DNA of 64,000 nucleotides from Calditrichaceae bacterium (GTDB lineage: Bacteria; Calditrichota; Calditrichia; RBG-13-44-9; J075), in NCBI GenBank assembly GCA_013360445.1, contig JABWBP010000003.1:2811-66810 (forward strand). Direction: 5' to 3'. Each line of letters opens with the position of its first letter. Position 1 is the stretch's first letter. This document shows, piece after piece, positions 9,771 through 49,666 of this stretch. The position numbers were made by a program, and so were the translations under genes. The notes beneath the pieces were generated by a model that was not told the origin of the DNA, did not search any database, and saw only the letters and a list, made by a program, of their open reading frames with translations.

Positions 9771-9783
9771 AATTTGTTACTGT

Positions 9784-15046: not shown

Positions 15047-15121
15047 AAGCTCCTCGGTTTCGCTTACGGAATATAAATTCGACCTGCTCCCTTATTATTC
15101 CTCTCCGCTAAAAATAATCAC

Positions 15122-15787
15122 TCAATGTAACAATGCCCACAGCAGGATATTGGTTCCCATCTGCAAGGCGGCGCGGCGAATTTCCGGGGGGTCGTTGTGG
15201 ATCTCCGCGTCTTCGCAGCCGTCGCTGATGTCGGTATTGAAGCTGTAAAACGCTATCATCCGCCCCTCGAAGAACAATCCGTAGCCTTTGGGCGGCCCCC
15301 CGCCGTGTTTGTGCACCTTGGGCAGGCCGTTGGGAAACTGGTAATTGATGTGATAGATGGGATGGGAAAAGGGCAGTTCCACCCAGTCGGATTCCGGGAA
15401 TACCTTTTTCATCTCCCGGCGAAAGGAGAGATCCATGCCGTAATCGTCATCCGCCCACAGGAATCCCCCGTTGATCAGGTACTCCCGCAGCTTGCGAGCT
15501 TCCTCGTCGGAAAATTTGATATTTCCATGCCCGGCGATATAGGCCAGGGGATGCTTGAAGAAATCCTTGTCCAAAATCCCCAGGGCGATTTCCCGCTCCG
15601 TGGCGGCCACGGCGGCGTTCCGGCGCATAAACTCGAACAAATTGACGAAGGTGGTGCGGTTGCCGTACCAATCGCCCCCGCCGCCGTATTTGATACGCAC
15701 CACGGTGACGGGGGACTGGGAAAAAGCCGGCGCTTGCAGGCACAAACCGGCGAGTATGATCGAATACGCGAGGTTTTGAAACTTCAT
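15122..15787 (-). CDS. DUF4159 family exported protein
   Basis: Signal peptide from MKFQNL; KYGGGGDWY, GHGN, GGFLWADDDYG and LPKVHKH motifs. Confidence 0.88.
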   Translation of the reverse strand: MKFQNLAYSIILAGLCLQAPAFSQSPVTVVRIKYGGGGDWYGNRTTFVNLFEFMRRNAAVAATEREIALGILDKDFFKHPLAYIAGHGNIKFSDEEARKLREYLINGGFLWADDDYGMDLSFRREMKKVFPESDWVELPFSHPIYHINYQFPNGLPKVHKHGGGPPKGYGLFFEGRMIAFYSFNTDISDGCEDAEIHNDPPEIRRAALQMGTNILLWALLH

Positions 15788-15937
15788 AGGATTGATGCGG
15801 TGATGGATGGTGGTATGGCAGCGAACTTCCAAACTCACCACTCTCGATTCACATCCCGGGCGCGAGCGCGCCAAAGCATGAGCGAATTGAGAATGGTGAA
15901 GGATTAGCCGGATCGCCGTGAATCTTCACTGAAATCT

Positions 15938-16729
15938 TTATGCACCGCTCTGCATATTGCGATAATTAGCGGCAAACGCCCGCCGCTTATCACGGCTGTT
16001 CAAATTCATCTTCTTCAGCCAGGAACGCACTTTAAGCCAGCCGACCCGGGTGAAACCGAAATCCGCGGTATTCAGCCACTTATGAATCCGGTAAGCGCCG
16101 AGATCGGGGTTCTTGGCCACAATATAGCGAATCTTGTCTTCCACGGACATGCTGACCATGTCGAGAATGCTCGGTTTTTTAGCGGCCGGGCGCGGGGTTT
16201 GGGACGGTTCCTGCGCCGGGGTAACCCGGGGCGGGCGGGCGGGTTCTTCCGCGGCGCGAGGCGGGGTATCCATCCGGCTGATGGTAGGCCCCTGCGCCGC
16301 CGGCTCCGGGGAAAAGGCCGGGCGCGCGTCCTGCGCTTCCCGGGGAGTGCTGGAAACCATTTCTACGTATTGAGATTCCTCGAATTTATTGATCGCCGCT
16401 TCGATGGTATCGTAAACGTCCAAAATGTGGTGAAATTCCAGCAGCTCGAAGATTTCATAGACATCCGGGATCATCCGCACTAACTTCAAGTCGCCGTTGT
16501 TTTCCCGAATCTGTTTGATTTCGCTGATAAAAATCCCCCAGCCCGCGCTGCTGATGTAGTCCACGTTTCCCAGGTCGATAATGATTTGATACTTCCCTAT
16601 CTTCAAAAGATTGTTCAACTCCCGTTCTACTTCCGAAGAAGTGGTCGTATCAATATACCCTCCGACCCTGATAATCGAAATCTGGCTGTGAGCCCCCGCA
16701 GCCTGGGTGGATACCTGAATGCCTTCCAT
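15938..16729 (-). CDS. STAS anti-anti-sigma (RsbV/SpoIIAA-like) domain, Pro-rich linker and C-terminal HTH-like domain
   Basis: GYIDTTTS and IIDLGNVDYISSAGW (phosphoacceptor Ser). The C-terminal ~60 aa are homologous to the neighbour's HTH. Confidence 0.85.
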   Translation of the reverse strand: MEGIQVSTQAAGAHSQISIIRVGGYIDTTTSSEVERELNNLLKIGKYQIIIDLGNVDYISSAGWGIFISEIKQIRENNGDLKLVRMIPDVYEIFELLEFHHILDVYDTIEAAINKFEESQYVEMVSSTPREAQDARPAFSPEPAAQGPTISRMDTPPRAAEEPARPPRVTPAQEPSQTPRPAAKKPSILDMVSMSVEDKIRYIVAKNPDLGAYRIHKWLNTADFGFTRVGWLKVRSWLKKMNLNSRDKRRAFAANYRNMQSGA

Positions 16730-16823
16730 TCATTCCTCCGTATAATGGTTTCCGGTCTGTATGGTTAAACGTCCTTGTTTATTCTTAATTCTCATTTACT
16801 GATAGGGCCGTCAAATTTTTTGG

Positions 16824-19508
16824 CTATTTTTCCGTCTCCTCGTCTCCCACAATATCCACTTTGCTTTCCGCATCTTCCTCCACCGGCTCCTCGAAATCGT
16901 TTTCCCCCGCTGCCCCCTCCTGCGCTGCAACCGGTTTCTGGTTGGAAGGTTCGGAGGGAAAAGCGCCGGGAATACGTTTTCCGCGCGCGGAGATCATTTT
17001 TTCCTTCGCGCGGGATTTGGTCGGGGGAAGGTTGGGCATAAAGGGCATTTCCGCGGTCTTCTGATCGTCGCTGCGGAAACCGACCATCACTTCCCCGTCC
17101 AGGGTTAGCAGCGGGGTTCCGGGAGGTTTGAGCCGCTTTTTCCCACCGCGCTGCACAAAGGCGAGCCGCTGTTCTTTGGTATTCAATTTTGCCCGCCGCA
17201 ACTCTTCATAGACCAGGAACGGCGAAATCTCCGTATATGCATATTTTTCCGTGTTCAGCATATCGCTGATCTTCTTAGGCCCAAACTCCGGGTATTGCCG
17301 GATAATATCATACATTTTTGTTTTAACTTCAATACTTAAATGCCGCAATCCCAGGTTGGTGTAGCCGTGCAGCATTTCCCGCAACAGGTCGTACCCGCCT
17401 TCCTGGTAAATGCGCTTGTAGCGGTAGAAGGTGGTGGGGGAAACTCCCACTTCTTTGCAGGTATCGGCAACCGACTGGTTGTTATCGGCCTGCACCTGTT
17501 CGAACAATTTTTTGAACGTATTTACCTTAACATCGACCGCCGCCATGTTTTCTTTAATAGCAACTAAGGTAATATCGTCATTCTGTTCGAACCCGCCGGT
17601 AAAGGCCAAGATATCCTCTTTGATGCTCCGGACGAATTCCTCCACGTCTAAGTGCCCGTATTTGCGGATGGCGGCCAGGAAGCGCTCTTCCCCGTAGAGA
17701 TCCCGCTGGGGATTCATGGCTTCGGTAACCCCGTCGGTATAGAGAATGAAAATATCGTCCGGGTGCAAACGAATGCGGTCGGCCTGGATTTTTTCCCCGA
17801 ACAGGCGAATGTCCGGCAGGGTAATCCCCACCGGAAAACCGGAGGGATTGAGATAGTAGGTTTCCTTGCTCTTCCCGCGATAGAGGATCATGGGATTGTG
17901 CCCGGCGCTGGCGAAAGAGACCATGCGCTCCCGGGAATCTAAGATCACGTACAGCATGGTCACGAACATACCCTTGCGGATATCGTCGGTCACAAAGGCA
18001 TTCACCCGGGTCATAATGTCTGCCGCGTTGTCATTGCCGCGGGATTCCAGCCGTAAGGAAGTGCGGATCATGGTCATTACCAGGGAGCCGGGAACCCCCT
18101 TGCCGGAGACGTCGGCCACGCAAATCCCGATCGACTGGTCGTCGATCTCCATAAAATCGAACAAATCCCCGCCCACCTCTTTGGCGGATTGGTAATAAGA
18201 GGCGATGTCGTATCCCACCACGTCCGGGAAATCATCCGGCAATAGCATCTGCTGGATTTCCTGCGCCACCTGCAACTCTTTCTGCATCCGCTGCTGTTCG
18301 ATGACGCTGATCTGCGCTTCCCGGAATTTATTGGTCACTTCGCTAAAAGCCTGGGCAATTTCCCCTACCTCGTCGCTGGCGTCGATGTCGATCTCGTCCT
18401 GGTCCACCTGCCCGCGGCCAACCTGGCGCACCCACTCGGCTAATTTATGGAACGGTTTGGTGATCAGGGTAACCAGCAGGGCAATTCCCGCGGTTCCCAG
18501 GGCAAAAACCAGCAGCAGGATAAAGATCAGGCGGTTCTTTTGTTTTATCACCAGGTGGTGAATGTAAACCTCTTCTATTCCCAGCAAGGTGTATCCGATT
18601 GGCGCCGGATCGATGGATAGTTGAATGGGAGAAACGAAATAATAGACCATGCCCGAGTCGGTCATAGCGGTCTGGTACACCGTGACGTCTTCAAAGGTAG
18701 CCGTGGTTTTCAAGTTATCGAAGCGCATCGATTGGGGGACCATCTCCAGATTGATGGGATAGAACGCGATTACCTCCAGGTTCTGCTTCAGGATCATCAC
18801 CATGCGGAGCATTTCGCTGCGGCTTTGCTGAATGGATTTGGCGTTTTCAAAGAGCTGGGTATCTTTCTCCTGGCGAAGCGGCTCGTAATTGACCCGGGCG
18901 AAATCATTGCTGATAGAAGTGGCTTCGGCAAACACTTTTTCCCGAACGTCGGCCTCGATCCCCGCCTTGAGTAGAAAATAGGCCGCCAGGGTCAAAACTA
19001 CCATAATGATCGATGTTACCATGAAGGATTTATTGCGCAGCGACAGGGAGCCAAACCAGGAGAGATATTTCGATTCTTCCACTGCTTCCCGGGTCTTGGC
19101 CAGCCGCAGCTCGTTGCCGTGGCCGGTGATGTTATACTGGATGTCATCCATCAGCTTGCGCATCATGTGGATGCCCAAACCGCCCTTCTTGCCGATCTGC
19201 ACGTATTTCTGCAAATCCGGATCTTTGACCTGGCGGGGATCGAAGCTCCTGCCCTGGTCGATGACCACGATGGTAACACTTAAGCGGCGGATAATGGCGC
19301 GGATGGTGATTTTGCCGTCTTTGATGTCCTTGTAACCGTGGCGGATGATGTTGGTGCAGGCTTCATCCACCACCAATTTGAAGGAATTGATGATCTTGTC
19401 GGAAATTTTGTACTTCTTCCCGATCTGCTCGATGAAGTCCCGAATTTCCTTCAGGTGCGCCATCGAGGCAGGGACGACAATTTCTTCTTTTGAGATATTC
19501 TTAAACAT
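16824..19508 (-). CDS. Membrane fusion: RsbW-type kinase, TM-periplasmic-TM, HAMP, SpoIIE/PP2C phosphatase, HTH pair
   Basis: EACTNIIRHGY, DQG and GGLG GHKL boxes; two TMs; HAMP DEVGEIAQAF; VGGDLFD, ADVSGKG, YTDGVTEA and DDIT PP2C motifs; SVADTCKEVGVSPTTFYRYK HTH. Confidence 0.88.
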   Translation of the reverse strand: MFKNISKEEIVVPASMAHLKEIRDFIEQIGKKYKISDKIINSFKLVVDEACTNIIRHGYKDIKDGKITIRAIIRRLSVTIVVIDQGRSFDPRQVKDPDLQKYVQIGKKGGLGIHMMRKLMDDIQYNITGHGNELRLAKTREAVEESKYLSWFGSLSLRNKSFMVTSIIMVVLTLAAYFLLKAGIEADVREKVFAEATSISNDFARVNYEPLRQEKDTQLFENAKSIQQSRSEMLRMVMILKQNLEVIAFYPINLEMVPQSMRFDNLKTTATFEDVTVYQTAMTDSGMVYYFVSPIQLSIDPAPIGYTLLGIEEVYIHHLVIKQKNRLIFILLLVFALGTAGIALLVTLITKPFHKLAEWVRQVGRGQVDQDEIDIDASDEVGEIAQAFSEVTNKFREAQISVIEQQRMQKELQVAQEIQQMLLPDDFPDVVGYDIASYYQSAKEVGGDLFDFMEIDDQSIGICVADVSGKGVPGSLVMTMIRTSLRLESRGNDNAADIMTRVNAFVTDDIRKGMFVTMLYVILDSRERMVSFASAGHNPMILYRGKSKETYYLNPSGFPVGITLPDIRLFGEKIQADRIRLHPDDIFILYTDGVTEAMNPQRDLYGEERFLAAIRKYGHLDVEEFVRSIKEDILAFTGGFEQNDDITLVAIKENMAAVDVKVNTFKKLFEQVQADNNQSVADTCKEVGVSPTTFYRYKRIYQEGGYDLLREMLHGYTNLGLRHLSIEVKTKMYDIIRQYPEFGPKKISDMLNTEKYAYTEISPFLVYEELRRAKLNTKEQRLAFVQRGGKKRLKPPGTPLLTLDGEVMVGFRSDDQKTAEMPFMPNLPPTKSRAKEKMISARGKRIPGAFPSEPSNQKPVAAQEGAAGENDFEEPVEEDAESKVDIVGDEETEK

Positions 19509-19523
19509 CTTCCACTTTCCGCT

Positions 19524-21461
19524 TTATTGATTCCCCCGGGTACGGTTAATACGATCTTCGGTCGTTTTAATAGCATCCTGAAGTTTTTTGTTGTAAGGAT
19601 ATTTTTCCGCCAAAGCTCTCCAGATCTCCAGCGCCTTATCATAACGCCCGGCCAGGAAATGTTCCGTGGCGATGAGATACTGCCGTTCGGATTCCGGATC
19701 CATCTTCTCCCGTTTGGTGCCCAGTTCGCGCTGGGTCTGTTCGTAGTATTTGCGGATCGCCTCGTTGGAGGGATCGAGCTGCAGCGCCTCCTCGAATACC
19801 GTGTTCGCTTCCTGGTACTCGCCTAATTCCAGCAGCGCCAATCCTTTCACGGTATATTGCTGCAATTTGATGCGCCTGGTGAGGGTGCCGATCTCATCTT
19901 TCAGCTCCGGCGCTTCCGGGGAGAGCAGGAAAGCCTCGCTGAGAATCCGCAGCGCATCGGAATAATTGCCCTTTTGGAATTCCTGCCGCGCCGCCAGCAC
20001 CAGCTTGCGCACTTCCGCATTCAACTGGCGGTTGGTGGTGTTGATCGCTTCGTTGATCAACGCTTTGGTCGAACTATCTTCACCCGCTATATCGAGGGCT
20101 AAGTTAAACTCCTTCAGGGCGTCGGTGAACTGTTTCTTCTGAAGGTAAACATGTCCCTGGTCGAAGCGCAATTTAATAAGTTTTTGTGTTTCCTCGGCCA
20201 GTTTCTTATCCACCGCGTTGTCCAACGCCTCTTCCAGCCTCCGGTCGAGTTGATTGTCGATCAAAAACTTGGTGCTGTCGAAGAGAACTTTCGCTTCTTT
20301 ATTAAACGGATCATCCGTGATTACCTGTTGGAATTCGGAATACGCATCGAAATAATTCCCTTGCTGGAATTCCTGTTTACCCCGGCTCATGTGCTCGGCA
20401 ATCCGCTGCCGGCGATCTTCTTCTTTGGTGCGCTCCACCAATTCCCGTTCCCGGCGCTTGCGTTCCTCGTTCGCAGCAAAGATTTTTTCTTCCCGCGATT
20501 TTCCCAGGTTGAAGGTGATCGAAAAACGATGGGAAGCGCCAAAATCGCCTTCGGTGCTCAAATTGCCGAAAGCGTAATCAATATCCACGAATTTATAGCG
20601 CACCCCGGCTCCAAAGGCGGGAGTGCCCTGGTCAAAACCTGCCCGCACCGTGCCCATGTCCCGGAAGACGTATTCGCCGCCGGCGTGAATCACCCCTCCC
20701 TCGAATTCACCCTGGGCGTAATCGAGCAGAATATTCAATTTACCGCTCTGGCCGAGGGGCAGGCTTTTCATGACTCCAAAGGTAAGCTGGTAGGCCAGGG
20801 TGTCGGTGTTGGCGCCTAATTTCAGCTGCGGTTTGACTAAATTTTGAAAGTGGAAGCCGAAAGAGAGGTTCCTCAGAAACGGGGAATCGAATTCCGGGCG
20901 ATACATCAACCCCGCATCCAATCCGAAGGCGCTGGTTACCTGGTTAGTGTAGGAAAACGATTGCCGCTGCACTTTAAAGGTAATGCCCGGGGTGACGCCG
21001 TACCAGATCTTTTTGGCGTAAGCAATATAGATCTCGCTGAAATCATAGTCTGCGGATACCCCCTGCAACACCTGGTTGTATTCCGTGACGACATTGATGT
21101 CCCCCACTACCACCCGGGAATAGCCGATCCCGATGGTGCCAAACTGCAAGGTGGGATAGAGGAAGCCGACGAAATCGTAACTGGCCCCGCTCACTACCAG
21201 GGGGGTATGGAAAAGGGAAAAAGAAATCCGCGGCGCGTATTCCAGCCCGGCGGGGTTCCAGAAAATCGCCGAGGGATCATCCGCCAGGGCCACAAAGGCG
21301 CGCCCCAGCCCGAAAGCCCGCGCGCCGGCGCCCACTTCGTGCAGGATGGTCTGGGTTCCCGCAGTTCCCTCTTGCGCGTAAATCTGCGAGGGCGCAACGC
21401 TCAGCATCCCTGTCAAAAGGAGCGCCCACGCTCTCCCGGGAATTTGTTTCAAACCTCTCAT
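19524..21461 (-). CDS. PorV/PorQ-like outer-membrane protein with C-terminal TPR repeats
   Basis: GAGARAFGLGRAFVALADDPSAIFWNPAGL motif; barrel ending HRFSITF; then several TPR helices. Start at 21461 or 21500. Confidence 0.85.
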   Translation of the reverse strand: MRGLKQIPGRAWALLLTGMLSVAPSQIYAQEGTAGTQTILHEVGAGARAFGLGRAFVALADDPSAIFWNPAGLEYAPRISFSLFHTPLVVSGASYDFVGFLYPTLQFGTIGIGYSRVVVGDINVVTEYNQVLQGVSADYDFSEIYIAYAKKIWYGVTPGITFKVQRQSFSYTNQVTSAFGLDAGLMYRPEFDSPFLRNLSFGFHFQNLVKPQLKLGANTDTLAYQLTFGVMKSLPLGQSGKLNILLDYAQGEFEGGVIHAGGEYVFRDMGTVRAGFDQGTPAFGAGVRYKFVDIDYAFGNLSTEGDFGASHRFSITFNLGKSREEKIFAANEERKRRERELVERTKEEDRRQRIAEHMSRGKQEFQQGNYFDAYSEFQQVITDDPFNKEAKVLFDSTKFLIDNQLDRRLEEALDNAVDKKLAEETQKLIKLRFDQGHVYLQKKQFTDALKEFNLALDIAGEDSSTKALINEAINTTNRQLNAEVRKLVLAARQEFQKGNYSDALRILSEAFLLSPEAPELKDEIGTLTRRIKLQQYTVKGLALLELGEYQEANTVFEEALQLDPSNEAIRKYYEQTQRELGTKREKMDPESERQYLIATEHFLAGRYDKALEIWRALAEKYPYNKKLQDAIKTTEDRINRTRGNQ

Positions 21462-21499
21462 AGCGTGATCTCTATGCTTTTTTTGAAATCGCGATAACA

Positions 21500-24400
21500 C
21501 TACTTAATATAAACCACTTTCGTCTGGAATGTAGCGCCGCCGCCGCTGCCATAGTTGACCTTCAGCACAGCTACATACACCCCGTTCACTACCCGCTCGC
21601 CCTGGGAATTCCTGCCGTCCCATTCCAGCGCCGAGGTATGCAGCCCCGCGGGCAGGCCGTTTACCGCGCTGCTCCAGACCAGCCGCCCGGTAAGGGTAAA
21701 GATGTGCAATTCCGCGTTCCCACTGTTTTCCATCAGGAAATTAAACCGGGTAACGCCCGGGGGCGCCCCGGGAAGCCGGGTTTCCATTCCGAAGGGATTG
21801 GGATAATTATGGAAAATTTGCTGCGGGTCCGAAGAAAGCAGCGTTACCCGGGGAGATTGAAGCTGGATTGCCGCCAGGGGAGCGCCTAAGGAATCCACCA
21901 CGTTCACCCTGCCCACAAACCCTCCGGAGGCGTCAACCTGCTTCAGTTGAATTCTGAAATTCCGGCTGATGGGCTGGTTGGCCATATCGATGCGAATCAC
22001 TAAGCTGTCGCTTTCTTCCGCCGCGAGGGTATCCACCGGGCTGAAATTGATCTTTACCGGGTTGGCGGTCTGCTCGGTGATCACCACCTCGCCTAAGCGA
22101 TCCGGGGGGCTGCCGGGTTTGCCCAATTGCTGGCGGTAGAAATCATAGCTGACTACTTCCACCCGGGAAATCAGGTTGTGCATATCTGCGACCGGGGTCC
22201 CGGTTTCCCCGTCCAACACCGCAATGTCAAAATTGTTGATAAAAATTGTTTCCACGGTGTTGGGATTGATGAACGCCGCACCTAACACCCCAATTTCCCG
22301 CTCTCCCTGGATGTAACTGTTATCGACTTCCACCACGTCATCCAGCGGCTTGATAGTGATCTGGCTGGAAACCATGTTGATGTCAAATACCAGGGTATTG
22401 ACGCCGGTGCTGGCCGGGGCTTGGGTGTTGACGTCTGACGGCAACTGGGTAGTGAAACCGAGGGTAAAGACGGTATTCACGTCGAAATTCGGGGCCAGCA
22501 GGGTCCACTGGAAGCTGGCGGTATTGGTCTGGTTGTCGATGACAAAATCCTTTTCTTCGGTTTCCCCACCGGCAAACTGGAATCCCACCTCGCCGATATT
22601 CAAACGCACCCTTCCGGTTCCCTGCACGTCCGCTTCGCCGGCGTTATTTACCGCCGCCTGCAGTACGAATTGCTCGCCCTTCAACACCCGTACGGAAACG
22701 GTCTGGCTGGCCAAATTCAACAGGGCTTTGCGCTGCACGCTCACCGGCAGTTCCACCGTATCCCGCACCACGGCGGCGTTGGGCGGGGGCGTATTGGCGT
22801 CGCGCCCGCTCACAATTACCGTCAGGACGCCCGGCAGGGTCGGTTGGGGAATATTCTGATTGGCGCGGATGGCCCAGTTCACCACCGCGTTCTGCCCGAA
22901 CTCTTTCAGGGAATCCGCGGGGTTGAGGAAGGAAAAGCCCTCCGGCAGCCGCAAGGTTCCGCTGCGCTCGATCACGTTCTCCGGGGCATCTACCTCCACT
23001 TCTAAAATTCCCACCTGCTCGGTGGACCAGACCGCCGGCGCGGCGTTGCGGATGATGGTAATCTCCGGTTTCTCGGCGATGAAGATCGCCGTAGAATCGC
23101 TGCCCACCTCCACGGCCGCGGGAAGCCCGGAATTAATATCCGGGGGCCGCGCGGTGATGGTTACTTTCACCAGCGAGGTATCCACCAGCGCGTTCAACTC
23201 GCGGTAGAGGCCGGAAAGTTCGTCTTCGACCCGGCGCAGCTCCGCGGGTTTTTCGATCCCGCGGAAAACCGCAGCGCCCCGGGCCGGGTTCCCGGCGCTC
23301 CCCTCCCCTTCCGCCGCGCCGGTCTGCTGCACCGCAACAATCAGGCGGGCTTTTTCCTGCTTCGCGCCGTGAATCCGGCGCAGCAGCGCCGCCGCCTGGC
23401 CGTTTTCCGCCGCCTGGATGGTCCAGCGCACCGGGGTATTCAGATCAAATTCTTTGACTAAACTATCAGGGTCGATCACCAGTTTTTGCCCCACCGAGAG
23501 GGTCAATTGCCCTTTCGGCGCCGCCGCAACCCCGGCCTGGCCGACGTTGGCGACTACCGCTTCATACACAAAGAATTGTCCCTGGCTGACGGTATTGTTC
23601 ACCGCGCCGCCGGCAACCCGCCCATCAACCGCCAAAGTGGCGCGCTTCTGAACGTACAGATAGAGGAACGCGGAATCTTCTAACGTCACCGTATTGCTGA
23701 CCTGGGAAGTCCCGCGAATTTTCACCTTCAACTCTTCCCAAATATTGGTCAGGGAATCGGGAACCTGGATGTTCCACTGCACCGGGGCTCCCGCGGCGGA
23801 AATGGGCGCAACCAGGGAATCCAGCGTGAAAATATCCGGCAGGTAGAGCGTGGCCACCCGGTTGATGAAATTGCCGCTGATTTGCGGCTCCACGGTCACC
23901 CGCACCTGTTGCAGGGTGGAGACCGTCAAACTGTCGGTTCCCGGGGCGTTGAGGTACGCAGCGGAGATGGCGAAAATCCCCACCTCCACGATGGTAAGGG
24001 TGTCGGTATCGCTGCCCTTTTCCAGGTGCACGCCCATGCCCGGGAAACCGTTTTCATCCCAGGAGAGGGTGCTGTCGATGGAAGCGGTGAGCAGGTAGGG
24101 GTTCCCGCTGCCGCTGGCCCCGGGTTTGGTGCGCATTTGCCAGGAAATCAAGGCCTGCTTGTTCACCAACTGCACGGTTTTAACGGTATCCGCGGGGTTC
24201 AGCAGCCGGAAGGCGGTGGTATCGAACGCCAGCTTTACGGTCACGTTGTTATTGGGCTGAATATCCGCTTTGCCGGTATTGCTGATCAATCCTTCCAGGG
24301 TAAAATCCTGATTCTGGGTGAGAGTATCCAAACCGGCGCTTAAGTTGTCGATGCGCAGGGAGGCGCGGGTTTCCACGGACAGGTTGAAGGAGGCCAGCGC

Positions 24401-30400: not shown

Positions 30401-33400
30401 AGTAACCACGTTGATCGCCCGGCCCTGGGCGTCGGTAGTTACCTGGGTGAATTCGAACTGGGTGTTGTTGAATCCCGGCAGGGCTGCGAAATCGACCACG
30501 GTATTGGGCGCCGGGTTTCCGAAGGCGTCGCGGGCGCGCAGGATTACGGTAATATTCTCTCCCCGCACGGCGGCGATGGAATCCCGGGGAATCTGGCGCA
30601 TGGAGATCAACTCCAGCAAGGTTGCCCCGGCGGGCAGGGCGGCGGCGTAGGCGGTATCACTGGCCAGCGCCGGAAACGCCAGGGTCGCTACCATTTTCTG
30701 AATCCCCGCCGGCGCTCCTAAGGTCCAGGCCGTGGCGGCCTGCCCGGAAGCGTTGGTCAGCCGGGAGGGCGGGTTTGCCGCGCCGTTCTGCGGCTGGGGA
30801 ATGAAATCGAGGGTAGAATCCGCAATCGGGTTATCATAAATATCTACCAATTGGAAACGCAGCGAATCGCCGAGAACCACCCCGGCGACGCCGGTCTGGT
30901 TGTTCCCCGCGACCAACAGGATGCGGTCCGGCGCCCGGTGCTCCGCAAAAGTGGTAAAATCCACCAAATTGGGATTGGTGGAAGCGGAAAATGCGCGAAC
31001 CACGTAAGTCCCCGCCTTCGTTCCCAGGTGAATTTGCGTTTGCACCCGTCCCTGGGCGTTGGTGGAGCCGTTGTTAACGGTCAAAAATTCGTTCGCTGCG
31101 CCGGAGGGTTTCTGCACGATGGCAAAGCTGATCGGGAAATTGGGTACCGGGTTGCCAAACGCATCCGTGACCACCACGCTGAGGTTCTGGGTTAACAGGC
31201 TGTCCACCAGACCGGTGGTATCGGCCGGCTGCTCCCGGGTGAGCACCAGCGCCGCGCCGGGAATGACCGTGGCGGTAAAGAAAACCGTATCCGGGTTGGT
31301 AGGCTGGCCGAGAATGGTGGCCGCCAGAGTATCCGGGGTGGCGGTATTGTGCACGGTCCAGCCGGTGCTGGCAACGCCGGAGGCGTCGGTTACATCCGTG
31401 GGATTGCTCACGCTGCCCCCGCTGAGGGGTACGAAAGTAACCGTGACGCCCTCCACCGGGTTTAAAAATTGATCCAGCACCTGCACTTCGATGGGCAGGG
31501 GCAGCAGGGAGTTTACCGGCGCGGTTTGCCCGTCCCCGGCAAATTTGATCAACGAATCCGGCGCCGCCGCCCGGATGGTCACCGGGTCGCTGACGCCGTT
31601 TTTGAGCGGATTGGCCTGGCTGCGCGCGGTGAGCCGGAAAACGCCGATCTTATCGCTGCTGGCGGTGAAGCCGGCTACCCCGGCGCTGAGGGTGGCGCTC
31701 AGGGGAGAGATGGAGACGTCCGGATTATCGCTAAAAAATTCCGCCACGGTGCTGTTATCGTTGCTCACCAGGTTGTCGTTGACATCGAAGCCCCGCACGG
31801 TTATGGAGATGTCGCTGCCGGCGGTGGTATCGAAAGTGGCGGGAGTGACCGTGAAATAGCTGAGCGGCCCCGGTACCGTGGTGACATCGAACTGCACGAA
31901 CACCCCGGGACTGCCGACCAGGGTGGCATTCGCCTCGTTCAAGCCGGCAGCCGGGCCGGTGGTAAACAGCGCCTGGGCGATACCCTGGCCATCGGATACC
32001 ACCGTCTGGCTGTTCAAGCCTGCGAAATTTCCGCCCCCGCTGACCACGTCGAAGCGGACCGATGCCCCGCTGACCGGGTTGGACTGGCTGTCGGTCACCC
32101 GCGCCCGCAGCAGCCGGTTGGAGCCCGCGGCAATGCCGGTAGTGTCGCCGCTGACTTTACTCACCATCGAAGGAAGGCCGGGATTGACGGTGATGATCCC
32201 GGTCTGGGCGGTCAGGGTGCTGTTATTAAAATTAGTCGCCCGGGCGGTAAAAGTCCCCGCTTTCGTTTCAACCACTACAAAATTAAAAAAGCTGTTATTG
32301 TTGAAGTATCCTTTCGGCGGATATACCGCGGTGGTGCTCCCGAATACCTCAATCGTGGCGCTGTCGTTATTTGCTACCGGGGCGCCGAATTGATTTAGCG
32401 CCGTCACGGTAAATTGGATGGAACCGCCCGCGGTAATCGTGGCGGTTTGCGGCGTTATGGTATAATTCGTGATCGGGCCGGCGGTCAAGGTAATCGCGGG
32501 GCTGTTTTGCGCCGCGGTAGAGAATCTCAGCCGGGGATAGAGACGGGATTCAAAAGTATATGGTCCCAGGGTCTGGTTGGGCACGCTGATGCGGAAACTG
32601 ACCGCAATGTTGCTCTTGACCGTATAGGGCGGCAGTTGGATATACAAACTATCGTTGCCGGAATTATAGAACCAGGTGGCGATAGTAGGCAGGGCGGTGT
32701 ATTCCGCAGCCGACGGCGGGGTGGCGCGCTGGATGAAGAAAAAGTTCGTCCCATCCACCGCGATGGAATCGACCACCGTAACCGGGCTGGAGAGCGGGTT
32801 GTGAATTCGCAGCACGTCCGCCTTGCCCATTTGCTGCAAAATGGTTGCCGCGGTGGTAATAGTATTGAGGTTGAAGCGGAATTTCTGCCCGTTGGTCCCC
32901 ACGGCTACCTGAGCCGGTTGCAAATTCGCTATCGCGCTGATATTGGCGGAAGGGAAAAAGAGGATCGCCCGCCCGTTGGCCAGGCTGGGATTATTAAAGG
33001 AATAAGTGTTGAAATCCAGCCCGAATTTGACCCCCACGGTGGCGCTGCCGCCCAATTCTCCATTGCTGCCGGTTCCCAGGCTCAAGTATTGCAGTTTGAT
33101 GAGGTTGGTAGTTTCGTACAGAATCACCTGGAAGGTGAGGGGAGAACTGCCCGCTTTCAGGGAGACGTTTTTATATTCGATGACCAATGCCCGGTAAGGG
33201 GCGACGCCGATCACTTTTTGGTACACCCGGGCGGTGCTTTCGCTCAGGATCAAATCATCCCAGAATACCGCAATCATGGAGTCCGGGGCGTTGCCGCCGG
33301 ATAAATTATCATTCGTAAAATAGGGATCGCTGGCCCCGTAATTCCGGAACGTCAAATATCCGTTGCTGCTGGCGTAAACGGTATTGAAGGGCTGGTCATA

Positions 33401-33622
33401 ATAATTGAATGAAAACCCCGAGGGGAAATTCACCGTGTAGAAAACGTCGTCATCGGAGGTAGTCCCAATAACGGTTCCGTCGGATATTTCCACCCAATGA
33501 AATTCGACATCCGGGTCGCTTGCCCTTCCCATGCCGGCGGGAGAAATCTGGGCAAATAAAACGCCCGGCGTTATGATCAGGATTGCGAAAAATGCAGACA
33601 GCAGTCTCCCAACCAATTTCAT
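21500..33622 (-). CDS. Giant (4040 aa) secreted Ig-repeat surface protein with C-terminal T9SS-like/FlgD-Ig sorting domain
   Basis: Signal peptide; invasin/Big_1-like repeats (VTDxxGNPV); many beta-sandwich repeats; C-terminal HNYPNPF..IFTLTGRLV..WDGRN..GVY..KVVYIK. Confidence 0.9.
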   Translation of the reverse strand: MKLVGRLLSAFFAILIITPGVLFAQISPAGMGRASDPDVEFHWVEISDGTVIGTTSDDDVFYTVNFPSGFSFNYYDQPFNTVYASSNGYLTFRNYGASDPYFTNDNLSGGNAPDSMIAVFWDDLILSESTARVYQKVIGVAPYRALVIEYKNVSLKAGSSPLTFQVILYETTNLIKLQYLSLGTGSNGELGGSATVGVKFGLDFNTYSFNNPSLANGRAILFFPSANISAIANLQPAQVAVGTNGQKFRFNLNTITTAATILQQMGKADVLRIHNPLSSPVTVVDSIAVDGTNFFFIQRATPPSAAEYTALPTIATWFYNSGNDSLYIQLPPYTVKSNIAVSFRISVPNQTLGPYTFESRLYPRLRFSTAAQNSPAITLTAGPITNYTITPQTATITAGGSIQFTVTALNQFGAPVANNDSATIEVFGSTTAVYPPKGYFNNNSFFNFVVVETKAGTFTARATNFNNSTLTAQTGIITVNPGLPSMVSKVSGDTTGIAAGSNRLLRARVTDSQSNPVSGASVRFDVVSGGGNFAGLNSQTVVSDGQGIAQALFTTGPAAGLNEANATLVGSPGVFVQFDVTTVPGPLSYFTVTPATFDTTAGSDISITVRGFDVNDNLVSNDNSTVAEFFSDNPDVSISPLSATLSAGVAGFTASSDKIGVFRLTARSQANPLKNGVSDPVTIRAAAPDSLIKFAGDGQTAPVNSLLPLPIEVQVLDQFLNPVEGVTVTFVPLSGGSVSNPTDVTDASGVASTGWTVHNTATPDTLAATILGQPTNPDTVFFTATVIPGAALVLTREQPADTTGLVDSLLTQNLSVVVTDAFGNPVPNFPISFAIVQKPSGAANEFLTVNNGSTNAQGRVQTQIHLGTKAGTYVVRAFSASTNPNLVDFTTFAEHRAPDRILLVAGNNQTGVAGVVLGDSLRFQLVDIYDNPIADSTLDFIPQPQNGAANPPSRLTNASGQAATAWTLGAPAGIQKMVATLAFPALASDTAYAAALPAGATLLELISMRQIPRDSIAAVRGENITVILRARDAFGNPAPNTVVDFAALPGFNNTQFEFTQVTTDAQGRAINVVTTDTGNDSTFFRAFIAGVDTLDLHIFHIRYAGNLNPVAVSPGASAAFSLDLENLSPNPVELNPGATRFSFSSGSALFSALLDNPLTLQPGITTINFIPAIVDTNFASVSYAPEVFLRGSGENALLGGNIVLPNNSLSIFTLSVARVLGSKTQVTLGDTLTLTMRVNKFGPVTVNVDSVFLNFAGGTAIPQSNIVPSPGNPTVLPPNINTHDFEFVATIPGTAAGSYTVSGNFQGTTFSGNPVNASSDTNFVFSVGSSANLSVQSLTPDTLTTAEPVVFTAGLINNGNFAVLLDPNFSYLAFGADTVYLRQSYSVPAGGVINPVEVEFRSDSIVSPAQAAPYPVNMRLFGVENGITFDTTLTATDSVLVQNPPEVVVAGIIALADTAAQNQDSLRALVRLTNSGALNAPARFALPQGMTLSTSVLNNIPPNSSSTFTLAAGDTTPPVEFIFSLGPNYPPGVEEVKVRYSYTDVNTGKIFNRAPADSDTFVVLSRARLSLQAHFLNPDTVSPGQPGVEFRFTVRNDGQSPARIDNGDVAVLFNNPHTITLTSPALLPVVLAGDSTREFIYTIDVSPNSAIGSDFLDLSVSHSDTFSAKRYTDVAIENLDTLQITEGVTAAQVQIQSVQVTPGNANQGQIGLQAAARIKNLSNIAVRVDTVALIPSRPGIGAALITPLPVQIAPGNTANFQFGLAVADTMPAGAVTIDASYQATDLLFGIMISDTGAVVPGTLNILKPANFSFSAVTLAPDTASQGQGGILASVLATNGDDSTSSARVTGLQALFSVGGDTVTGALVNPTVLPVVPGGESVPVQFTLNVSDSASPGPVNVRIAAAGLDLTDSTAFADTSLAGTLIIRPRGNLAITALAISPDSAFLGQNGVPASITVQNNGAGAAQLNTVNLVLHNAPNFPVGLQTGTLPVILNPGQQTQVNYRIDVPANIFLPNGDSTIYAGATAQGVEVSSGKPVSAAGDSLDSFVISAQPDIRFDALISSPAFDIGDTADFKIQVTNLGGVALQLNAATFLRVEKANDPNNFSSQAIVPDSSDMNILPGETSVLAFEDLVMTEAGDFRLILGVQGNFYQPPHQLAFSQDINTQAFINVGGDVSIILVRVTPFETVAGDTGVIVDALVKNNTAPVSIDPGVLEFVYTDVPQTLPIVPTRLDTLTQVGTTPAADTLRWKFTVPPSARAGEVAVTVRLTFGNGSLGPISRTGFFNISSGAKIEYVVGSLMPDSVVNGQLAAFRASFINTGSANFFVRADSSYLQFSDPQHIYRAPVNGSFVIRGTPFQQVPDTSEIAFQADSISADFLAGLYDVAFHVFGDLPNQDTLTALDSTFAGQLTVLPEAIVVVDSVSVVPDAVIAGQENVQIRYFLRNSGQSAANLNAAIDVFRDSLGNDISALWSLQTQSQNFPFILPPSGAAVLTRNFIISGVHPPGLVRAHLRVNYNDVRKPGVILLAADSTVYDSVRVIIPSELFVDSLALVNVPNAANGTVNFNQPYALKLVLQNSGEDSVTNVTIRLFNDANQTVVFTQTISDTVLAPGASFRRDFPFTAGGASQTLRYRMVILEAFSVTSNTPVAIGEPLDNREDVTVQAPTQLALAAQLPGGEVYSQEQEFTVSFDIVRSGQSPFGNGSVRIQLPADYTLVSPNAQLPIGPAILSGSWQVQASADTTAGPADTIRVFYSAIPPDLNTAAPVILTSDSLALLVRVVESGKVEVADISIIAPPGGIDSTVSTGQNFRLSATIIFSGNVRAGNRTARVILPPGFSTDPDSIEQTLQGDLVTAEWPVSVAENILQMLGKTGGGRRHPDKNVSILDTNRDFALPAQGAVNENSGQQKKQGERLRIGGGEGILGETFDLQVRASGIDGGDSTRQFSDTATQQVTVVERAEMVMRAAVVDPPGATLGTVSTYQPFDVQIWVEKQGEAAVLPDDSNYIAIKVPQGFRIEGLAAGDSLLNYGIKTGFAEADTIRIFAPETVPAQQPLILARLDSTARDENTNQPAHVRQALASFNLSVETRASLRIDNLSAGLDTLTQNQDFTLEGLISNTGKADIQPNNNVTVKLAFDTTAFRLLNPADTVKTVQLVNKQALISWQMRTKPGASGSGNPYLLTASIDSTLSWDENGFPGMGVHLEKGSDTDTLTIVEVGIFAISAAYLNAPGTDSLTVSTLQQVRVTVEPQISGNFINRVATLYLPDIFTLDSLVAPISAAGAPVQWNIQVPDSLTNIWEELKVKIRGTSQVSNTVTLEDSAFLYLYVQKRATLAVDGRVAGGAVNNTVSQGQFFVYEAVVANVGQAGVAAAPKGQLTLSVGQKLVIDPDSLVKEFDLNTPVRWTIQAAENGQAAALLRRIHGAKQEKARLIVAVQQTGAAEGEGSAGNPARGAAVFRGIEKPAELRRVEDELSGLYRELNALVDTSLVKVTITARPPDINSGLPAAVEVGSDSTAIFIAEKPEITIIRNAAPAVWSTEQVGILEVEVDAPENVIERSGTLRLPEGFSFLNPADSLKEFGQNAVVNWAIRANQNIPQPTLPGVLTVIVSGRDANTPPPNAAVVRDTVELPVSVQRKALLNLASQTVSVRVLKGEQFVLQAAVNNAGEADVQGTGRVRLNIGEVGFQFAGGETEEKDFVIDNQTNTASFQWTLLAPNFDVNTVFTLGFTTQLPSDVNTQAPASTGVNTLVFDINMVSSQITIKPLDDVVEVDNSYIQGEREIGVLGAAFINPNTVETIFINNFDIAVLDGETGTPVADMHNLISRVEVVSYDFYRQQLGKPGSPPDRLGEVVITEQTANPVKINFSPVDTLAAEESDSLVIRIDMANQPISRNFRIQLKQVDASGGFVGRVNVVDSLGAPLAAIQLQSPRVTLLSSDPQQIFHNYPNPFGMETRLPGAPPGVTRFNFLMENSGNAELHIFTLTGRLVWSSAVNGLPAGLHTSALEWDGRNSQGERVVNGVYVAVLKVNYGSGGGATFQTKVVYIK

Positions 33623-33634
33623 AGAGCTACCCCA

Positions 33635-34153
33635 CTAATTAAGTTCGATGGTTACGTCTTTGATTTTTTGCAGGCGGGCTTCCGGGCCAGGCGGGCGCTC
33701 GCCGGCCTGGAACACGGTAACCTGCGACGGCGCAGCTTCGGATTGCGGCAGCGTTACTACCACGGCCAGGGTTGACTGCGGTTGTAATTGCTGCCGCACC
33801 CCGGACAGGTCAATGCTCAGCCAGCCGGAGGCTTCGTCGTCGAACCAGTGCACCGTTCCGGGAATTTCTACCGCCGCGTCGCTGCGCCGGGACCATAACT
33901 GGCTGCCGTCGATGCTGATGCGCACCAGCGCCAGGTTCGCTTTGCCGGAGTCGCCTAACACCAGGAAATTTACCGGGGCGGCCAATTCATTCCCCGCTAC
34001 TTCGATGGTAATCTCCCGGGAAGCGCCGGCCGCGCCGGGGGAGGAACCATCCTGCGCCGCAGCCGCCGGGGAAAACACCAGCATCAGCCAGATCCCCAGG
34101 GTTGTGGACAGCGCTCCCGCTGAAATTTTCATTTCAGGCTTTTTGTGAAACAT
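33635..34153 (-). CDS. Hypothetical secreted protein, first gene of the giant-protein cluster
   Basis: Signal peptide ending SPAAAA|Q; ends 12 bp before the giant gene. Start uncertain (34132, 34153 or 34270). Confidence 0.65.
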   Translation of the reverse strand: MFHKKPEMKISAGALSTTLGIWLMLVFSPAAAAQDGSSPGAAGASREITIEVAGNELAAPVNFLVLGDSGKANLALVRISIDGSQLWSRRSDAAVEIPGTVHWFDDEASGWLSIDLSGVRQQLQPQSTLAVVVTLPQSEAAPSQVTVFQAGERPPGPEARLQKIKDVTIELN

Positions 34154-34427
34154 GTTCAAGGTCCTGTGAATAATGTTGAAGGCAGATTGGGCTGGAGAAA
34201 GAGGAGATAACCACCGGCTCCGCGACGGGTTTATAAGGGCATTTTGACGGATGTAGGTATATGAATTCATGCTGAATTACCCCCAGTAATACTCTCGACG
34301 GCTACCCGGCGATCATTAGAATATTTGTAAAAGACCATCACATACATTCAATAATATACCAAAAACAACCCCTGACTTGAGAAAATATTCCTGCCCGGCA
34401 GGGCAGGTGGTGATAAGTGTCACAGGA

Positions 34428-46051: not shown

Positions 46052-46053
46052 CC

Positions 46054-47694: not shown

Positions 47695-47701
47695 GGAATG
47701 A

Positions 47702-49645
<1,944 letters not shown>

Positions 49646-49666
49646 AAAAATATGGAGATGATACCG

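Follow-up and report, generated by a model that had tools for sequence, protein, structure and literature searches.

The stretch of DNA analysed here (the window, 64,000 nucleotides from a Calditrichaceae bacterium) carries five minus-strand genes in a row, which encode a small secreted protein, a giant Ig-repeat protein, an outer-membrane barrel extended by a TPR tail (barrel-TPR), an inner-membrane receptor and a STAS-HTH protein, with successive intergenic gaps of 12, 38, 15 and 94 nt (Table 1). The earlier note had described this run of five co-oriented, closely spaced genes followed by DUF4159 and DUF4175, and both the layout and its coordinates proved exact. If translation of the barrel began at the GTG at 21500, the giant and barrel genes would overlap by 1 nt rather than lie 38 nt apart; judging from the sequence, the start is probably the ATG at 21461, which yields a signal peptide. 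No sigma factor gene was seen near the cluster, and our literature search found no paper that describes the cassette.

Table 1. Genes, domains and candidate sites of the cluster (positions in the window)
Feature	Position	Strand	Basis or remark
DUF4159 and DUF4175 block	11609..15874	-	downstream neighbours kept in Calditrichota only; outside the conserved core
DUF4175	11609-15046	-	downstream of DUF4159
DUF4159	15122-15874	-	downstream of STAS-HTH
STAS-HTH protein, anti-sigma-antagonist type	15938..16729	-	motif DYISSAGWG
Inner-membrane receptor, 894 aa	16824..19508	-	kinase/sCache/HAMP/PP2C/HTH architecture
Receptor periplasmic sensor domain, residues 183-325	18534..18962	-	model pLDDT 88.5
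Predicted receptor contact residues 214-224, 250-258	18735-18869	-	co-fold interface
PorV/PorQ-family outer-membrane barrel with TPR tail, ORF 658 aa	19524..21500	-	NF033709
Periplasmic linker helix and TPR tail, residues 336-658	19527..20495	-	sequence and model
Last TPR repeat, ORF residues 602-647	19560..19697	-	predicted receptor contact
Barrel part, residues 55-332	20505..21338	-	family score, model and fold search
Giant secreted Ig-repeat protein, 4040 aa	21500..33622	-	signal peptide; C-terminal sorting-type domain
Giant protein CTD, last 110 aa, T9SS-CTD-like	21503..21832	-	HNYPNPF motif
Small secreted protein, 172 aa	33635..34153	-	signal peptide ending AAAAQ; ATG at 34153
Palindrome GTGA-N6-TCAC, candidate operator	34410..34423	.	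promoter region upstream of the small gene

The palindrome upstream of the small gene occurs once within the 64-kb window and 31 times in the 6.0 Mb genome, and about 20 nt downstream of it, in the direction of transcription, lies GGAATATTTT. The palindrome is found at the same intergenic position in 10/10 loci of three Calditrichia families and is missing from two loci of other families and from one second-phylum locus. The small secreted protein has no family match; in each of the 10 other Calditrichia loci examined, and in one second-phylum locus, the gene immediately before the giant one is likewise a small ORF, of 158-240 aa, with weak similarity (26-33% by tblastn, 6/9) and a single invariant Trp.

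The giant protein contains Big_1, Invasin_D3, NPCBM_assoc and CARDB domains in addition to a conserved, weakly NIDO-like N-terminal region of about 400 aa (giant-N), and orthologues ranging from at least 3534 to more than 4495 aa hold the same position across Calditrichia. Scanned alone, its CTD reaches 27.5 bits for FlgD_ig (cut-off 27), 22.3 bits for TIGR04183 (cut-off 23) and 23.0 bits for CHU_C (cut-off 27), compared with 33.4 bits for the CTD of PorU itself; these scores, at or just beneath the curated cut-offs, count against the signalling reading given below.

The barrel is a member of the PorV/PorQ family both by score and by fold. Residues 55-332 match NF033709 with 121.7 bits (cut-off 90), TPR repeats extend to residue 658, the model (pLDDT 83.4) displays a barrel followed by a 44-residue helix and helical repeats, and the best Foldseek matches, 8gl6_F and 6h3i_F, are named PorV in the PDB. 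It shares with canonical PorV the NCBIfam family, the 14-strand-type barrel fold and a gene that adjoins that of a CTD-bearing protein, but it scores only 38.9 or 32.2 bits against the canonical PorV model (cut-off 250), its gene is paired with that of a signalling receptor, and PorV lacks the periplasmic helix/TPR tail of about 320 aa (the canonical model has 367 positions and the genome's own canonical PorV ORF 363 aa). That canonical PorV (254.7 bits, cut-off 250) is encoded together with SprA, two PorU, about 19 other PorV/PorQ paralogues and at least 47 ORFs with CTD-like tails (51 of 214 candidates scored); a GldM search gave no match in this genome, nor in any control genome. We know of no TPR tail or receptor in the cargo/barrel pairs of the PorP/SprF-like type. 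Such pairs, in which the gene of a large secreted protein with a type B CTD precedes that of its own barrel, whose presumed role is to anchor the cargo by its CTD (PMC9143113), resemble the arrangement seen here; however, the PorP/SprF model did not match the window barrel at E<=0.01, the latter belongs to the PorV/PorQ family, and the CTD of the giant protein is only T9SS-CTD-like, with type B not assigned.

The receptor consists of an RsbW-type serine kinase (HATPase_c_2, residues 12-138), two transmembrane helices flanking a periplasmic sCache/PDC domain at about 183-325, a HAMP domain (345-388), a PP2C phosphatase (SpoIIE, 456-652) and a transposase-type HTH module (674-785), and it also bears a conserved LKPPGTPLLTLDG motif and a disordered tail. 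Its best NCBIfam phosphatase match is SiaA, at 76.5 bits far under the cut-off of 700. In fold, the sensor domain is closest to the sensor domains of WalK, DctB, KinD, CitA and LuxQ and to the periplasmic domain of Chlamydia RsbU. Some of the PDC-fold relatives WalK, LuxQ and CitA are regulated by protein partners. In the STAS-HTH protein, a Pro/Gln-rich linker leads to a C-terminal HTH_21-like module of about 65 aa, homologous to receptor residues 721-785. The catalytic motifs of kinase, PP2C and STAS domains are invariant in 24-26 sequences, and a substrate-type STAS protein is conserved together with the receptor.

The cluster is expressed, with 129 raw metatranscriptome reads covering 24 of 30 bins. 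Their depth sums to about 23.6 where the first mate lies on the plus strand vs about 3.7 where it lies on the minus strand, a bias that fits minus-strand RNA. Contigs of the RNA library span the giant, barrel and receptor genes (18339-23298 and 16965-23318) or the receptor, STAS and DUF4159 genes (15000-17805). Separate transcription, which would have told against the earlier note, is thus opposed by strand-biased reads and contigs that cross gene junctions, although contigs that cover two genes fall short of proving one transcript.

What is conserved as a core is the order of two genes: barrel-TPR comes immediately before the receptor, and the two overlap or stand 3-25 nt apart. This order holds in 59 of 69 Calditrichota loci, the remainder being nine loci without room and one with a 100-N assembly gap; four of 41 relatives (G021, G023, G031 and G034; completeness 84-92%) have paralogue-level barrel matches only. 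Since the conserved order within Calditrichota reaches clearly unrelated genes, such as a patatin-Omp85 gene, synteny in this phylum alone is weak evidence. The pair is also adjacent in 18/18 carrier genomes of a second phylum (20 species), whose two genomes without the barrel are also without the receptor, and in 16/16 loci with room of a third, metagenomic lineage, retrieved using no other query than the barrel-TPR protein, their copies of which are 22-29% identical to that of the window. These counts include related genomes and are therefore not independent. The neighbourhood conservation that the earlier note proposed to check is borne out for the pair, whose adjacency is kept across three lineages down to 22-33% identity while every other neighbour changes; neither the second phylum nor the third lineage has DUF4159 or DUF4175 beside it.

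The cargo gene behaves differently from the pair. In Calditrichota the gene just before the barrel encodes a CTD-bearing protein, and in 16/16 third-lineage loci with room such a gene overlaps or abuts the barrel gene on its upstream side. In the second phylum the pair is flanked by hflX and by unrelated genes, with no cargo gene beside it, and the giant homologue is found 12-165 kb away or on another contig, followed by UvrD and a TPR protein instead of the barrel. The idea of a dedicated barrel, put forward in the earlier note, thus fits the two lineages in which the giant or another CTD cargo gene is adjacent, but the unlinked arrangement of the second phylum means that the barrel need not be private to the giant protein.

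Co-folding of the TPR tail with the periplasmic domain of the receptor gave a passing score of 0.69, against 0.02 for the best of three controls, in a single co-fold on self-made 26-row alignments; such scores are model confidence rather than measurement. The pass mark is attained by 116 of 157 solved complexes and by 2 of 215 mismatched pairs, counts that are only a rough guide here because of the self-made alignments. Co-fold runs share at least 97% of contacts, and the pLDDT of the partner is at least 84. The predicted interface uses the C-terminal-most repeat of the tail, the end farthest from the barrel, and no other 45-residue stretch of the tail is better conserved over the three lineages (of 280 stretches compared, the eight best begin at 590-598); on the receptor side, contact helix 214-224 falls within the most conserved 15-residue stretch of the sensor domain, starting at residue 216, outside which the domain is variable. 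When alignments of two lineages were used, conservation at the interface did not significantly exceed that of the remaining residues (permutation p 0.29 for the sensor domain and 0.13 for the tail). Taken as a prediction, the link between TPR tail and receptor that the earlier note proposed stands well above its controls, and the two domains may bind each other.

It is tempting to hypothesize that the cluster is a trans-envelope signalling cassette that relays the state of the surface to a phospho-switch, a reading to which we give about an even chance. A divergent PorV paralogue would sit in the outer membrane with its long helix and TPR solenoid reaching into the periplasm, where the last repeat would dock on the single-Cache (PDC) sensor domain, at its part distal to the membrane; the HAMP domain would pass the signal on, and the receptor would balance its own PP2C phosphatase against its own RsbW-type kinase, both of which would target a serine in STAS-domain proteins. 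In Calditrichota, where the cassette would form a single operon with the giant gene, the CTD of the giant protein would most likely be held by its private barrel, in the manner of PorU held by PorV and PorZ by PorQ, and the state of this surface protein would then be relayed inward. Output may pass through the HTH_21-like tails of the STAS proteins here and through a diguanylate cyclase in the related lineage. A GGDEF cyclase comes next in 9/12 third-lineage loci with room, followed by Wza-like and ParA/AAA_31 genes, and the genome's second STAS-linker-HTH_21-like gene sits inside an exopolysaccharide cluster; the outputs are likely to be matrix or exopolysaccharide production. As to the outside-in relay of the earlier note, the conserved pair and the co-fold speak for the physical link, whereas the direction of the relay, the sensing of a surface and the giant protein as input are what we infer.

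In the FecA-FecR-FecI system, a periplasmic extension of an outer-membrane barrel contacts the periplasmic domain of an inner-membrane regulator and alters gene expression. The present cassette shows no homology to it and has no TonB-dependent transducer, FecR or ECF sigma factor, but a T9SS-type barrel, a C-terminal TPR extension and a phospho-switch output. LuxQ-LuxP and WalK-YycH/YycI (PDB 1ZHH, 9A5D) likewise are sensors of PDC fold controlled by protein partners, although in our proposal an outer-membrane barrel supplies the partner, in the form of its tail, and not a periplasmic binding or membrane protein; Chlamydia RsbU (PDB 6MAB) has this periplasmic fold too and belongs to the partner-switching PP2Cs with a periplasmic sensor. 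In SiaABCD of Pseudomonas aeruginosa, a small partner protein, whose phosphorylation depends on a HAMP-PP2C phosphatase in the membrane and on a kinase, switches a diguanylate cyclase (PMC7278518). Third-lineage cassettes read exactly receptor, STAS, GGDEF and follow the same logic, but here one protein carries both kinase and phosphatase, the cluster in the window is without a cyclase, and a protein partner is proposed where the signal of SiaA is unknown. Finally, SypE/SypA of Vibrio fischeri (PMC3610818 and PMC10120452) similarly combine an N-terminal RsbW-type kinase and a C-terminal PP2C in one polypeptide with a STAS substrate, involve no sigma factor and govern biofilm polysaccharide; SypE is cytoplasmic with a central receiver domain, in contrast to the TM-sCache-TM-HAMP centre, the additional HTH module and the proposed outer-membrane input of the window receptor.

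Rather unlikely, in our view, is a pair that is real but monitors type IX secretion or the envelope as a whole, for instance cargo load on PorV-like carriers or outer-membrane stress, and not the neighbouring giant protein, in which case adjacency to the giant gene would be a habit of some lineages. The 18 second-phylum carriers without a cargo gene beside the pair would fit, as would the many paralogues and CTD-tailed ORFs of the genome; yet the giant-N orthologue, like that of STAS-HTH, accompanies the pair in 8/8 second-phylum carriers tested and is missing in 2/2 genomes without it, and the abutting or overlapping CTD genes of the two other lineages likewise speak against this reading. The periplasmic domain of LapD governs retention of the LapA adhesin. 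By analogy, control could run from the inside out: the cytoplasmic state of the receptor (STAS binding and the phosphorylation balance) would act through HAMP and the sensor domain on the TPR tail and change the way in which the barrel retains, releases or accepts the giant protein. We consider this improbable: the same physical link (adjacency and co-fold) and the cargo gene upstream in two of three lineages suit it, and a receptor holding both opposing enzymes needs no net enzymatic output of its own, but its output domains are enzymes with a co-conserved substrate-type STAS protein, no c-di-GMP or other cytoplasmic input domain was seen on it, and the third-lineage diguanylate cyclase and polysaccharide export genes reproduce an outside-in layout like that of SiaABCD (PMC7278518). 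It is just as improbable that there is no physical link and the genes are neighbours through co-regulation or a common process, the tail binding something else and the sCache domain, like its counterparts in CitA, DcuS or Chlamydia RsbU, sensing a small molecule: most of the nearest folds are indeed small-molecule binders, and the two-lineage conservation test and the nature of co-fold scores agree with it, but the adjacency outlasts all other neighbours, the co-fold lies far above all three controls and the interface matches the conservation maxima of both partners.

If the trans-envelope relay is true, the cell surface of these bacteria could talk directly to a cytoplasmic switch.

The five genes that the earlier note had described as co-oriented do follow one another head to tail along the minus strand, over 15938-34153 of the window, in a 6.0-Mb metagenome-assembled genome of the Calditrichota (Calditrichia). 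The giant secreted protein contains zero cysteines and, by self-BLASTP at E 1e-5, no internal repeats; its N-terminus comes near NIDO-like clusters of the protein atlas at 0.77-0.78, which is under the counting level and a lead only. Its C-terminal end reads HNYPNPF...KVVYIK, and the tail scanned alone came out at or a little below the curated cut-offs of three related models for sorting domains: 27.5 bits with FlgD_ig (cut-off 27), 22.3 bits with TIGR04183, which is type A (cut-off 23), and 23.0 bits with CHU_C, which is type B (cut-off 27). Both the translocon and the sortase of type IX secretion (T9SS) are encoded in the genome (SprA, 583.6 bits, cut-off 200; two PorU, 773.6 and 535.3 bits, cut-off 420), along with a canonical PorV on contig C121 (NF033710, 254.7 bits, cut-off 250), about 18 further PorV/PorQ paralogues and at least 47 ORFs with a match to the C-terminal domain of PorU itself (51 of the 214 candidates scored). 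The family search for GldM is uninformative, with zero matches in this genome and equally zero in every control genome. According to the Caldithrix abyssi genome paper, no gliding machinery of the Bacteroidetes type was found there; by term search, the paper makes no mention of Por secretion (PMC5317091).

Features of the cluster and of the neighbouring DNA in the window
Feature	Coordinates	Strand	Length	Content
Small secreted protein		-	172 aa	no family match
Giant protein	21500-33622	-	4040 aa	signal peptide; Ig-like domains of Big_1, Invasin_D3, NPCBM_assoc and CARDB type
Barrel-TPR protein	19524-21500	-	658 aa	residues 55-332 PorV/PorQ family; remainder TPR
Receptor	16824-19508	-	894 aa	kinase/sensor/PP2C chain
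Receptor segment LKPPGTPLLTLDG	17094-17132			receptor residues 793-805, past the HTH
STAS protein		-	263 aa	STAS, linker and HTH_21-like module
Terminator-like hairpin	34407-34390			between the upstream TPR gene and the small gene
Palindrome GTGA-N6-TCAC	34410-34423			upstream of the small gene; sole copy in the window
Upstream TPR protein	34506-35681		391 aa	weak RomY N-terminal match, 29.5 bits (cut-off 50)
Patatin-Omp85 protein	7074-9770		898 aa	fusion of patatin-like phospholipase, POTRA and Omp85 barrel; syntenic with the cluster throughout Calditrichota
recF, gyrB, gyrA	46118-52925	+		downstream

The barrel-TPR, receptor and STAS-HTH genes are each single-copy in their own genome. A full-length barrel-TPR orthologue (40-89% identity) was found as a single match in 33 of the 41 genomes of the class and in pieces in 4 more, and the last 4, which are 84-92% complete, have paralogue-level barrel matches only. 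The order giant C-terminus, barrel-TPR, receptor and STAS is held in 20 fetched loci wherever the contig permits, the receptor with STAS being present in 19, the giant C-terminus likewise in 19 (one contig end each) and DUF4159 in 15. A scan with a receptor profile, from which the best 80 of 510 relatives were kept, gave 69 Calditrichota-type loci; barrel-TPR lies immediately upstream of the receptor in 59 of them, 9 others begin inside or at the receptor, and STAS follows the receptor in 65, the other 4 having no room. The cassette is also present in genomes of the Caldithrix abyssi type, a cultured carrier (locus L074). The one remaining locus, L049, comes from a MAG filed as a complete chromosome: at 9300-10100 a run of 100 N at the junction adjoins the receptor match, which starts only at residue 127, and barrel and giant are missing upstream. 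This is an assembly gap that makes the locus unreadable, and the giant gene probably failed to assemble. The Calditrichota gene order extends further over DUF4159, DUF4175 and the patatin-Omp85 gene, so that synteny within the phylum is general and by itself little proof. Regions of the recF/gyrB/gyrA type often flank the replication origin, and the presence of these genes downstream therefore places the cluster near such a region; the GC skew of the window is not decisive.

The earlier note had proposed to test conservation of the neighbourhood across Calditrichota and FCB genomes. The adjacency of barrel-TPR and receptor recurs in a second phylum and in a third lineage. The other 11 of the 80 kept loci, labelled 'Bacteroidota bacterium' or 'bacterium' and with a receptor identity of 45-49%, belong to a separate phylum of which the collection holds 20 species genomes. 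Barrel-TPR (32-35% identical over its full length) stands there 3-25 nt upstream of the receptor. The pair has hflX on its upstream side and, downstream, a 3-keto-disaccharide-hydrolase-domain protein, FadL and a GDSL lipase, with no giant, STAS, DUF4159 or DUF4175 gene within 10 kb. Both genes are present and always adjacent in 18 of the 20 genomes and both are absent in the remaining 2, which may reflect one single loss. All eight carriers tested encode elsewhere in the genome a STAS-HTH orthologue (46-51% identity by tblastn, both domains) and an orthologue of the giant N-terminus (32-37% identity, in ORFs of up to 6593 aa). Intact giant N-terminal orthologues of seven carriers score E 1e-37 to 1e-46, and in the eighth, G044, the match is confined to a later stretch of the query (residues 452-598, E 1.3e-14) and lies at a contig end; the two non-carriers have generic STAS matches only and weak giant N-terminal matches (E 1e-14 to 1e-15). 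The third lineage was fetched from barrel-TPR alone, by scanning 8 representatives of a subgroup of about 608 aa against metagenome contigs; among 73 loci, 17 have a barrel plus tail match, to which we added L158, cut at its contig start, and 55 barrel-only or short-fragment loci were left out. In all 16 loci with room, the gene immediately downstream of the barrel is a receptor (28-33% identical, with kinase, sCache_3_2, HAMP and PP2C and without the HTH), and in all 16 with room on the other side a CTD-bearing gene of 503 to more than 2663 aa lies immediately upstream, often overlapping by 4 nt. A STAS gene follows the receptor in 9 of 13 loci with room and a GGDEF diguanylate cyclase comes next in 9 of 12; past the cyclase lie genes for a Wza-like exporter, for a protein related to that of the window's upstream TPR gene, and for a ParA/AAA_31 protein. 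Some of these loci encode the HTH_21-like tail by itself, as an ORF of 100 aa, and others have it fused to STAS.

The barrel itself belongs to the PorV/PorQ family (NF033709, 121.7 bits, cut-off 90), and its best Foldseek matches, ranked above FadL, are chains named as PorV in the PDB entries of F. johnsoniae translocon complexes (8gl6_F, E 1.3e-10; 6h3i_F, E 2.9e-9; target TM-score 0.66-0.67). With the canonical PorV equivalog NF033710 it reaches only 38.9 bits, and 32.2 bits at rank 16 of 20 in the genome search, against a cut-off of 250, and it is therefore an extra, divergent PorV/PorQ paralogue. In the structural model (pLDDT 83.4), a helix of 44 residues leaves straight after the last strand, and helical repeats make up the remainder of the chain. 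Searched with a profile, 1.84 billion representatives gave 1701 proteins at E<=1e-30, a count in which TPR-only proteins are included; among the best 150 representatives at 50% identity, at least 66 carry barrel and tail within one match. The receptor begins with an RsbW-type serine kinase domain (HATPase_c_2, 12-138). Two TM helices that enclose a periplasmic domain (about 140 residues) lead to HAMP, a PP2C phosphatase (SpoIIE, 456-652) and an HTH module (674-785) resembling the N-terminus of IS481/IS3 transposases; LKPPGTPLLTLDG and a disordered tail complete the chain. The parts of a partner-switching module of the RsbW/RsbU/RsbV type are present (HATPase_c_2, 103 bits; SpoIIE, 165.7; STAS, 70.8; TIGR00377, 67.9, cut-off 53.45), and the positions invariant in alignments (N53, D84/G86, D448, D466, D592/G593, D644/D645, and the STAS motif DYISSAGWG) cover the N- and G-box residues of the kinase and the metal-binding aspartates of PP2C. 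None of the 28 window ORFs scanned belongs to a sigma factor family that the kinase might hold. In a model of receptor residues 150-400 (pLDDT 88.5), the stretch enclosed by the two TM helices adopts a single PDC/Cache fold, with WalK, DctB, KinD, CitA, LuxQ and the periplasmic domain of Chlamydia RsbU as the nearest solved folds by Foldseek; the window's sensor domain has no Pfam match, and one third-lineage orthologue reaches 28.4 bits with sCache_3_2 (cut-off 28.4). In the STAS protein a variable Pro/Gln-rich linker leads to a C-terminal module of 65 residues that is homologous to receptor residues 721-785 (BLASTP E 9e-8). The receptor segment LKPPGTPLLTLDG is nearly or wholly invariant in Calditrichia and the second phylum and missing from the shorter third-lineage receptors. 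At three loci (L019, L028 and L029, from three families of the class) the receptor ORF is 1105-1201 aa long and carries, beyond the acidic disordered tail, an extra conserved helical region of about 150 residues at the C-terminus.

It had also been proposed that the TPR tail reaches the periplasmic domain of the receptor, and the co-fold agrees with this: the pair of tail (324 residues) and periplasmic domain (143 residues), for both of which 26-row alignments were drawn from the same genomes, scored 0.69 (runs of 0.69, 0.67 and 0.69) against 0.02 for the best of three controls, with at least 97% of contacts shared between runs and a partner pLDDT of at least 84. The mark applied to such scores is attained by 116 of 157 solved complexes and by 2 of 215 mismatched pairs, rates which are only rough here because custom alignments went into the co-fold. 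We know of no solved complex of this kind, so that a pass owed to a structure already known to the predictor seems unlikely. The predicted contacts join the last TPR repeat (ORF residues 602-616 and 638-647) to receptor residues 214-224 and 250-258, which places the contact at the tail end most remote from the outer membrane. When three lineages are aligned, the most conserved 45-residue windows of the tail (the top 8 of 280) start at 590-598 in alignment numbering, within the last repeat, and in the sensor domain conservation over 15 residues peaks in the window that begins at residue 216. Both the site of contact and these conservation maxima fit the topology, and neither was an input of the co-fold. 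Conservation of the interface is clearer in this later analysis than in a permutation test on two-lineage alignments, where interface residues did not stand out significantly in conservation (p 0.29 and 0.13). The modelled contact supports binding of the tail to the sensor domain, and we hold this single step to be rather probable.

On the output side, the genome encodes a second protein with STAS, linker and HTH_21-like tail (375 aa; STAS E 3e-34, tail E 2e-13), whose gene (L213 9399-10523, minus strand) lies within a cluster for exopolysaccharide biosynthesis and export on contig C7, at about 46000-64000, with a priming sugar transferase, a deacetylase, Poly_export, a GNVR/AAA_31 protein, GT4 and MBOAT. 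In the SiaABCD system, the phosphorylation state of SiaC depends on a kinase and a membrane PP2C, and SiaC in its unphosphorylated form activates the cyclase SiaD (PMC7278518). The third-lineage layout of receptor, STAS, diguanylate cyclase and polysaccharide export follows the same logic; the window's receptor scores 76.5 bits with NF038263 (cut-off 700) and falls outside that family, and the window's cluster has no GGDEF gene. Given this layout and the STAS-HTH_21-like gene of the exopolysaccharide cluster, we think that the switch controls matrix production. Like SypE, the receptor unites kinase and PP2C in one chain, but its centre is TM-sCache-TM-HAMP, with no Response_reg match where SypE has its receiver, and it is not a member of that family. 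The likeness to FecA/FecR/FecI is in logic only, the TonB-dependent transducer, the FecR-type anti-sigma factor and the ECF sigma factor all being absent from the cluster. Candidate roles of the HTH_21-like tails are DNA binding or tethering to the homologous module of the receptor. In third-lineage cassettes, relatives of the upstream TPR protein (21-25% identity) are flanked by the Wza-like and ParA-like genes, so that this protein may itself stand on the output side. Two T9SS-tailed proteins, one of 290 aa and an S8 subtilase, adjoin the C7 exopolysaccharide cluster.

The stretch was found in six RNA runs of three studies, from activated sludge and aquatic samples. In one raw-read run, 129 reads fall over 15000-34999 and cover 24 of 30 bins, with a summed depth of about 23.6 for first mates on the plus strand and about 3.7 on the minus strand; as usual for stranded libraries, this excess denotes minus-strand RNA, the strand of the genes. 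Contigs of RNA libraries span the junctions of giant, barrel and receptor (18339-23298 and 16965-23318), of receptor, STAS and DUF4159 (15000-17805) and of the small gene and giant (27213-34148), which is no proof of a single transcript. The gaps inside the cluster contain no terminator-like hairpin, and region-wide counts of such sites are at chance (31 seen against 27.6 expected). Across three Calditrichia families, 10 of 10 loci retain the palindrome despite diverged flanks, and its half-sites resemble CRP-type sites; about 20 nt past it, the minus strand reads GGAATATTTT / GGA(A)TATTTT. As a regulon marker the palindrome was rejected, its 31 genome sites, 11 of them outside long ORFs, giving no obvious regulon: the genes beside them are unrelated (ABC-F, SCO1, DUF423, rhodanese, PAS kinase, M28 peptidase), and at one site a pair of a small and a large gene shows no homology to the cluster's small and giant genes.

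The reading that we find most likely, with about an even chance for the whole chain from surface protein to matrix genes, is an outside-in relay. The giant surface protein would be held by a private PorV-type barrel, whose TPR tail would pass its state to the Cache-HAMP receptor; the receptor would alter the phosphorylation of STAS, which in turn would act on matrix genes. The same parts might be used in the reverse direction, in an inside-out, LapD-like control of the adhesin. A second rival, in which the receptor monitors the envelope or type IX secretion in general and is not tied to the giant protein, is to be set beside both the second-phylum loci, where the giant orthologue is encoded elsewhere, and the third-lineage loci, where a CTD-bearing gene adjoins the barrel. 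The last, that there is no physical link whatever, would sit with the permutation test, and the co-fold speaks against it. Within the outside-in relay, it is tempting to go further and regard the cassette as a touch sensor of the FCB group, in which load on a surface adhesin of several thousand residues, held in the private PorV-type barrel by its uncleaved CTD and transmitted by the barrel's rigid helix/TPR tail, would flip the kinase/phosphatase switch of the receptor and turn on the matrix (c-di-GMP or exopolysaccharide genes); we consider this specific version unlikely.

We found in the open-access literature no description of a coupling between a PorV-type barrel and partner switching, nothing relevant on type IX secretion in Calditrichaeota or on a STAS-HTH transcription factor and, among the titles and abstract openings listed, nothing on a barrel-TPR fusion. 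To our knowledge, the signals for membrane PP2C phosphatases of partner switching (relatives of SiaA and RsbU) are mostly unknown, and surface sensing in bacteria outside Proteobacteria is an open question. The touch sensor, if true, would be the first relay from outer to inner membrane made of type IX secretion parts and the first known protein-ligand input for a partner-switching phosphatase. As input to the receptor we propose a defined contact between proteins, made with an outer-membrane barrel from the type IX secretion family, and since the predicted interface is specific and mutable, the question is directly testable. As the barrel-TPR family is large, a result would bear on many lineages from sludge, sediment and water that are uncultured.
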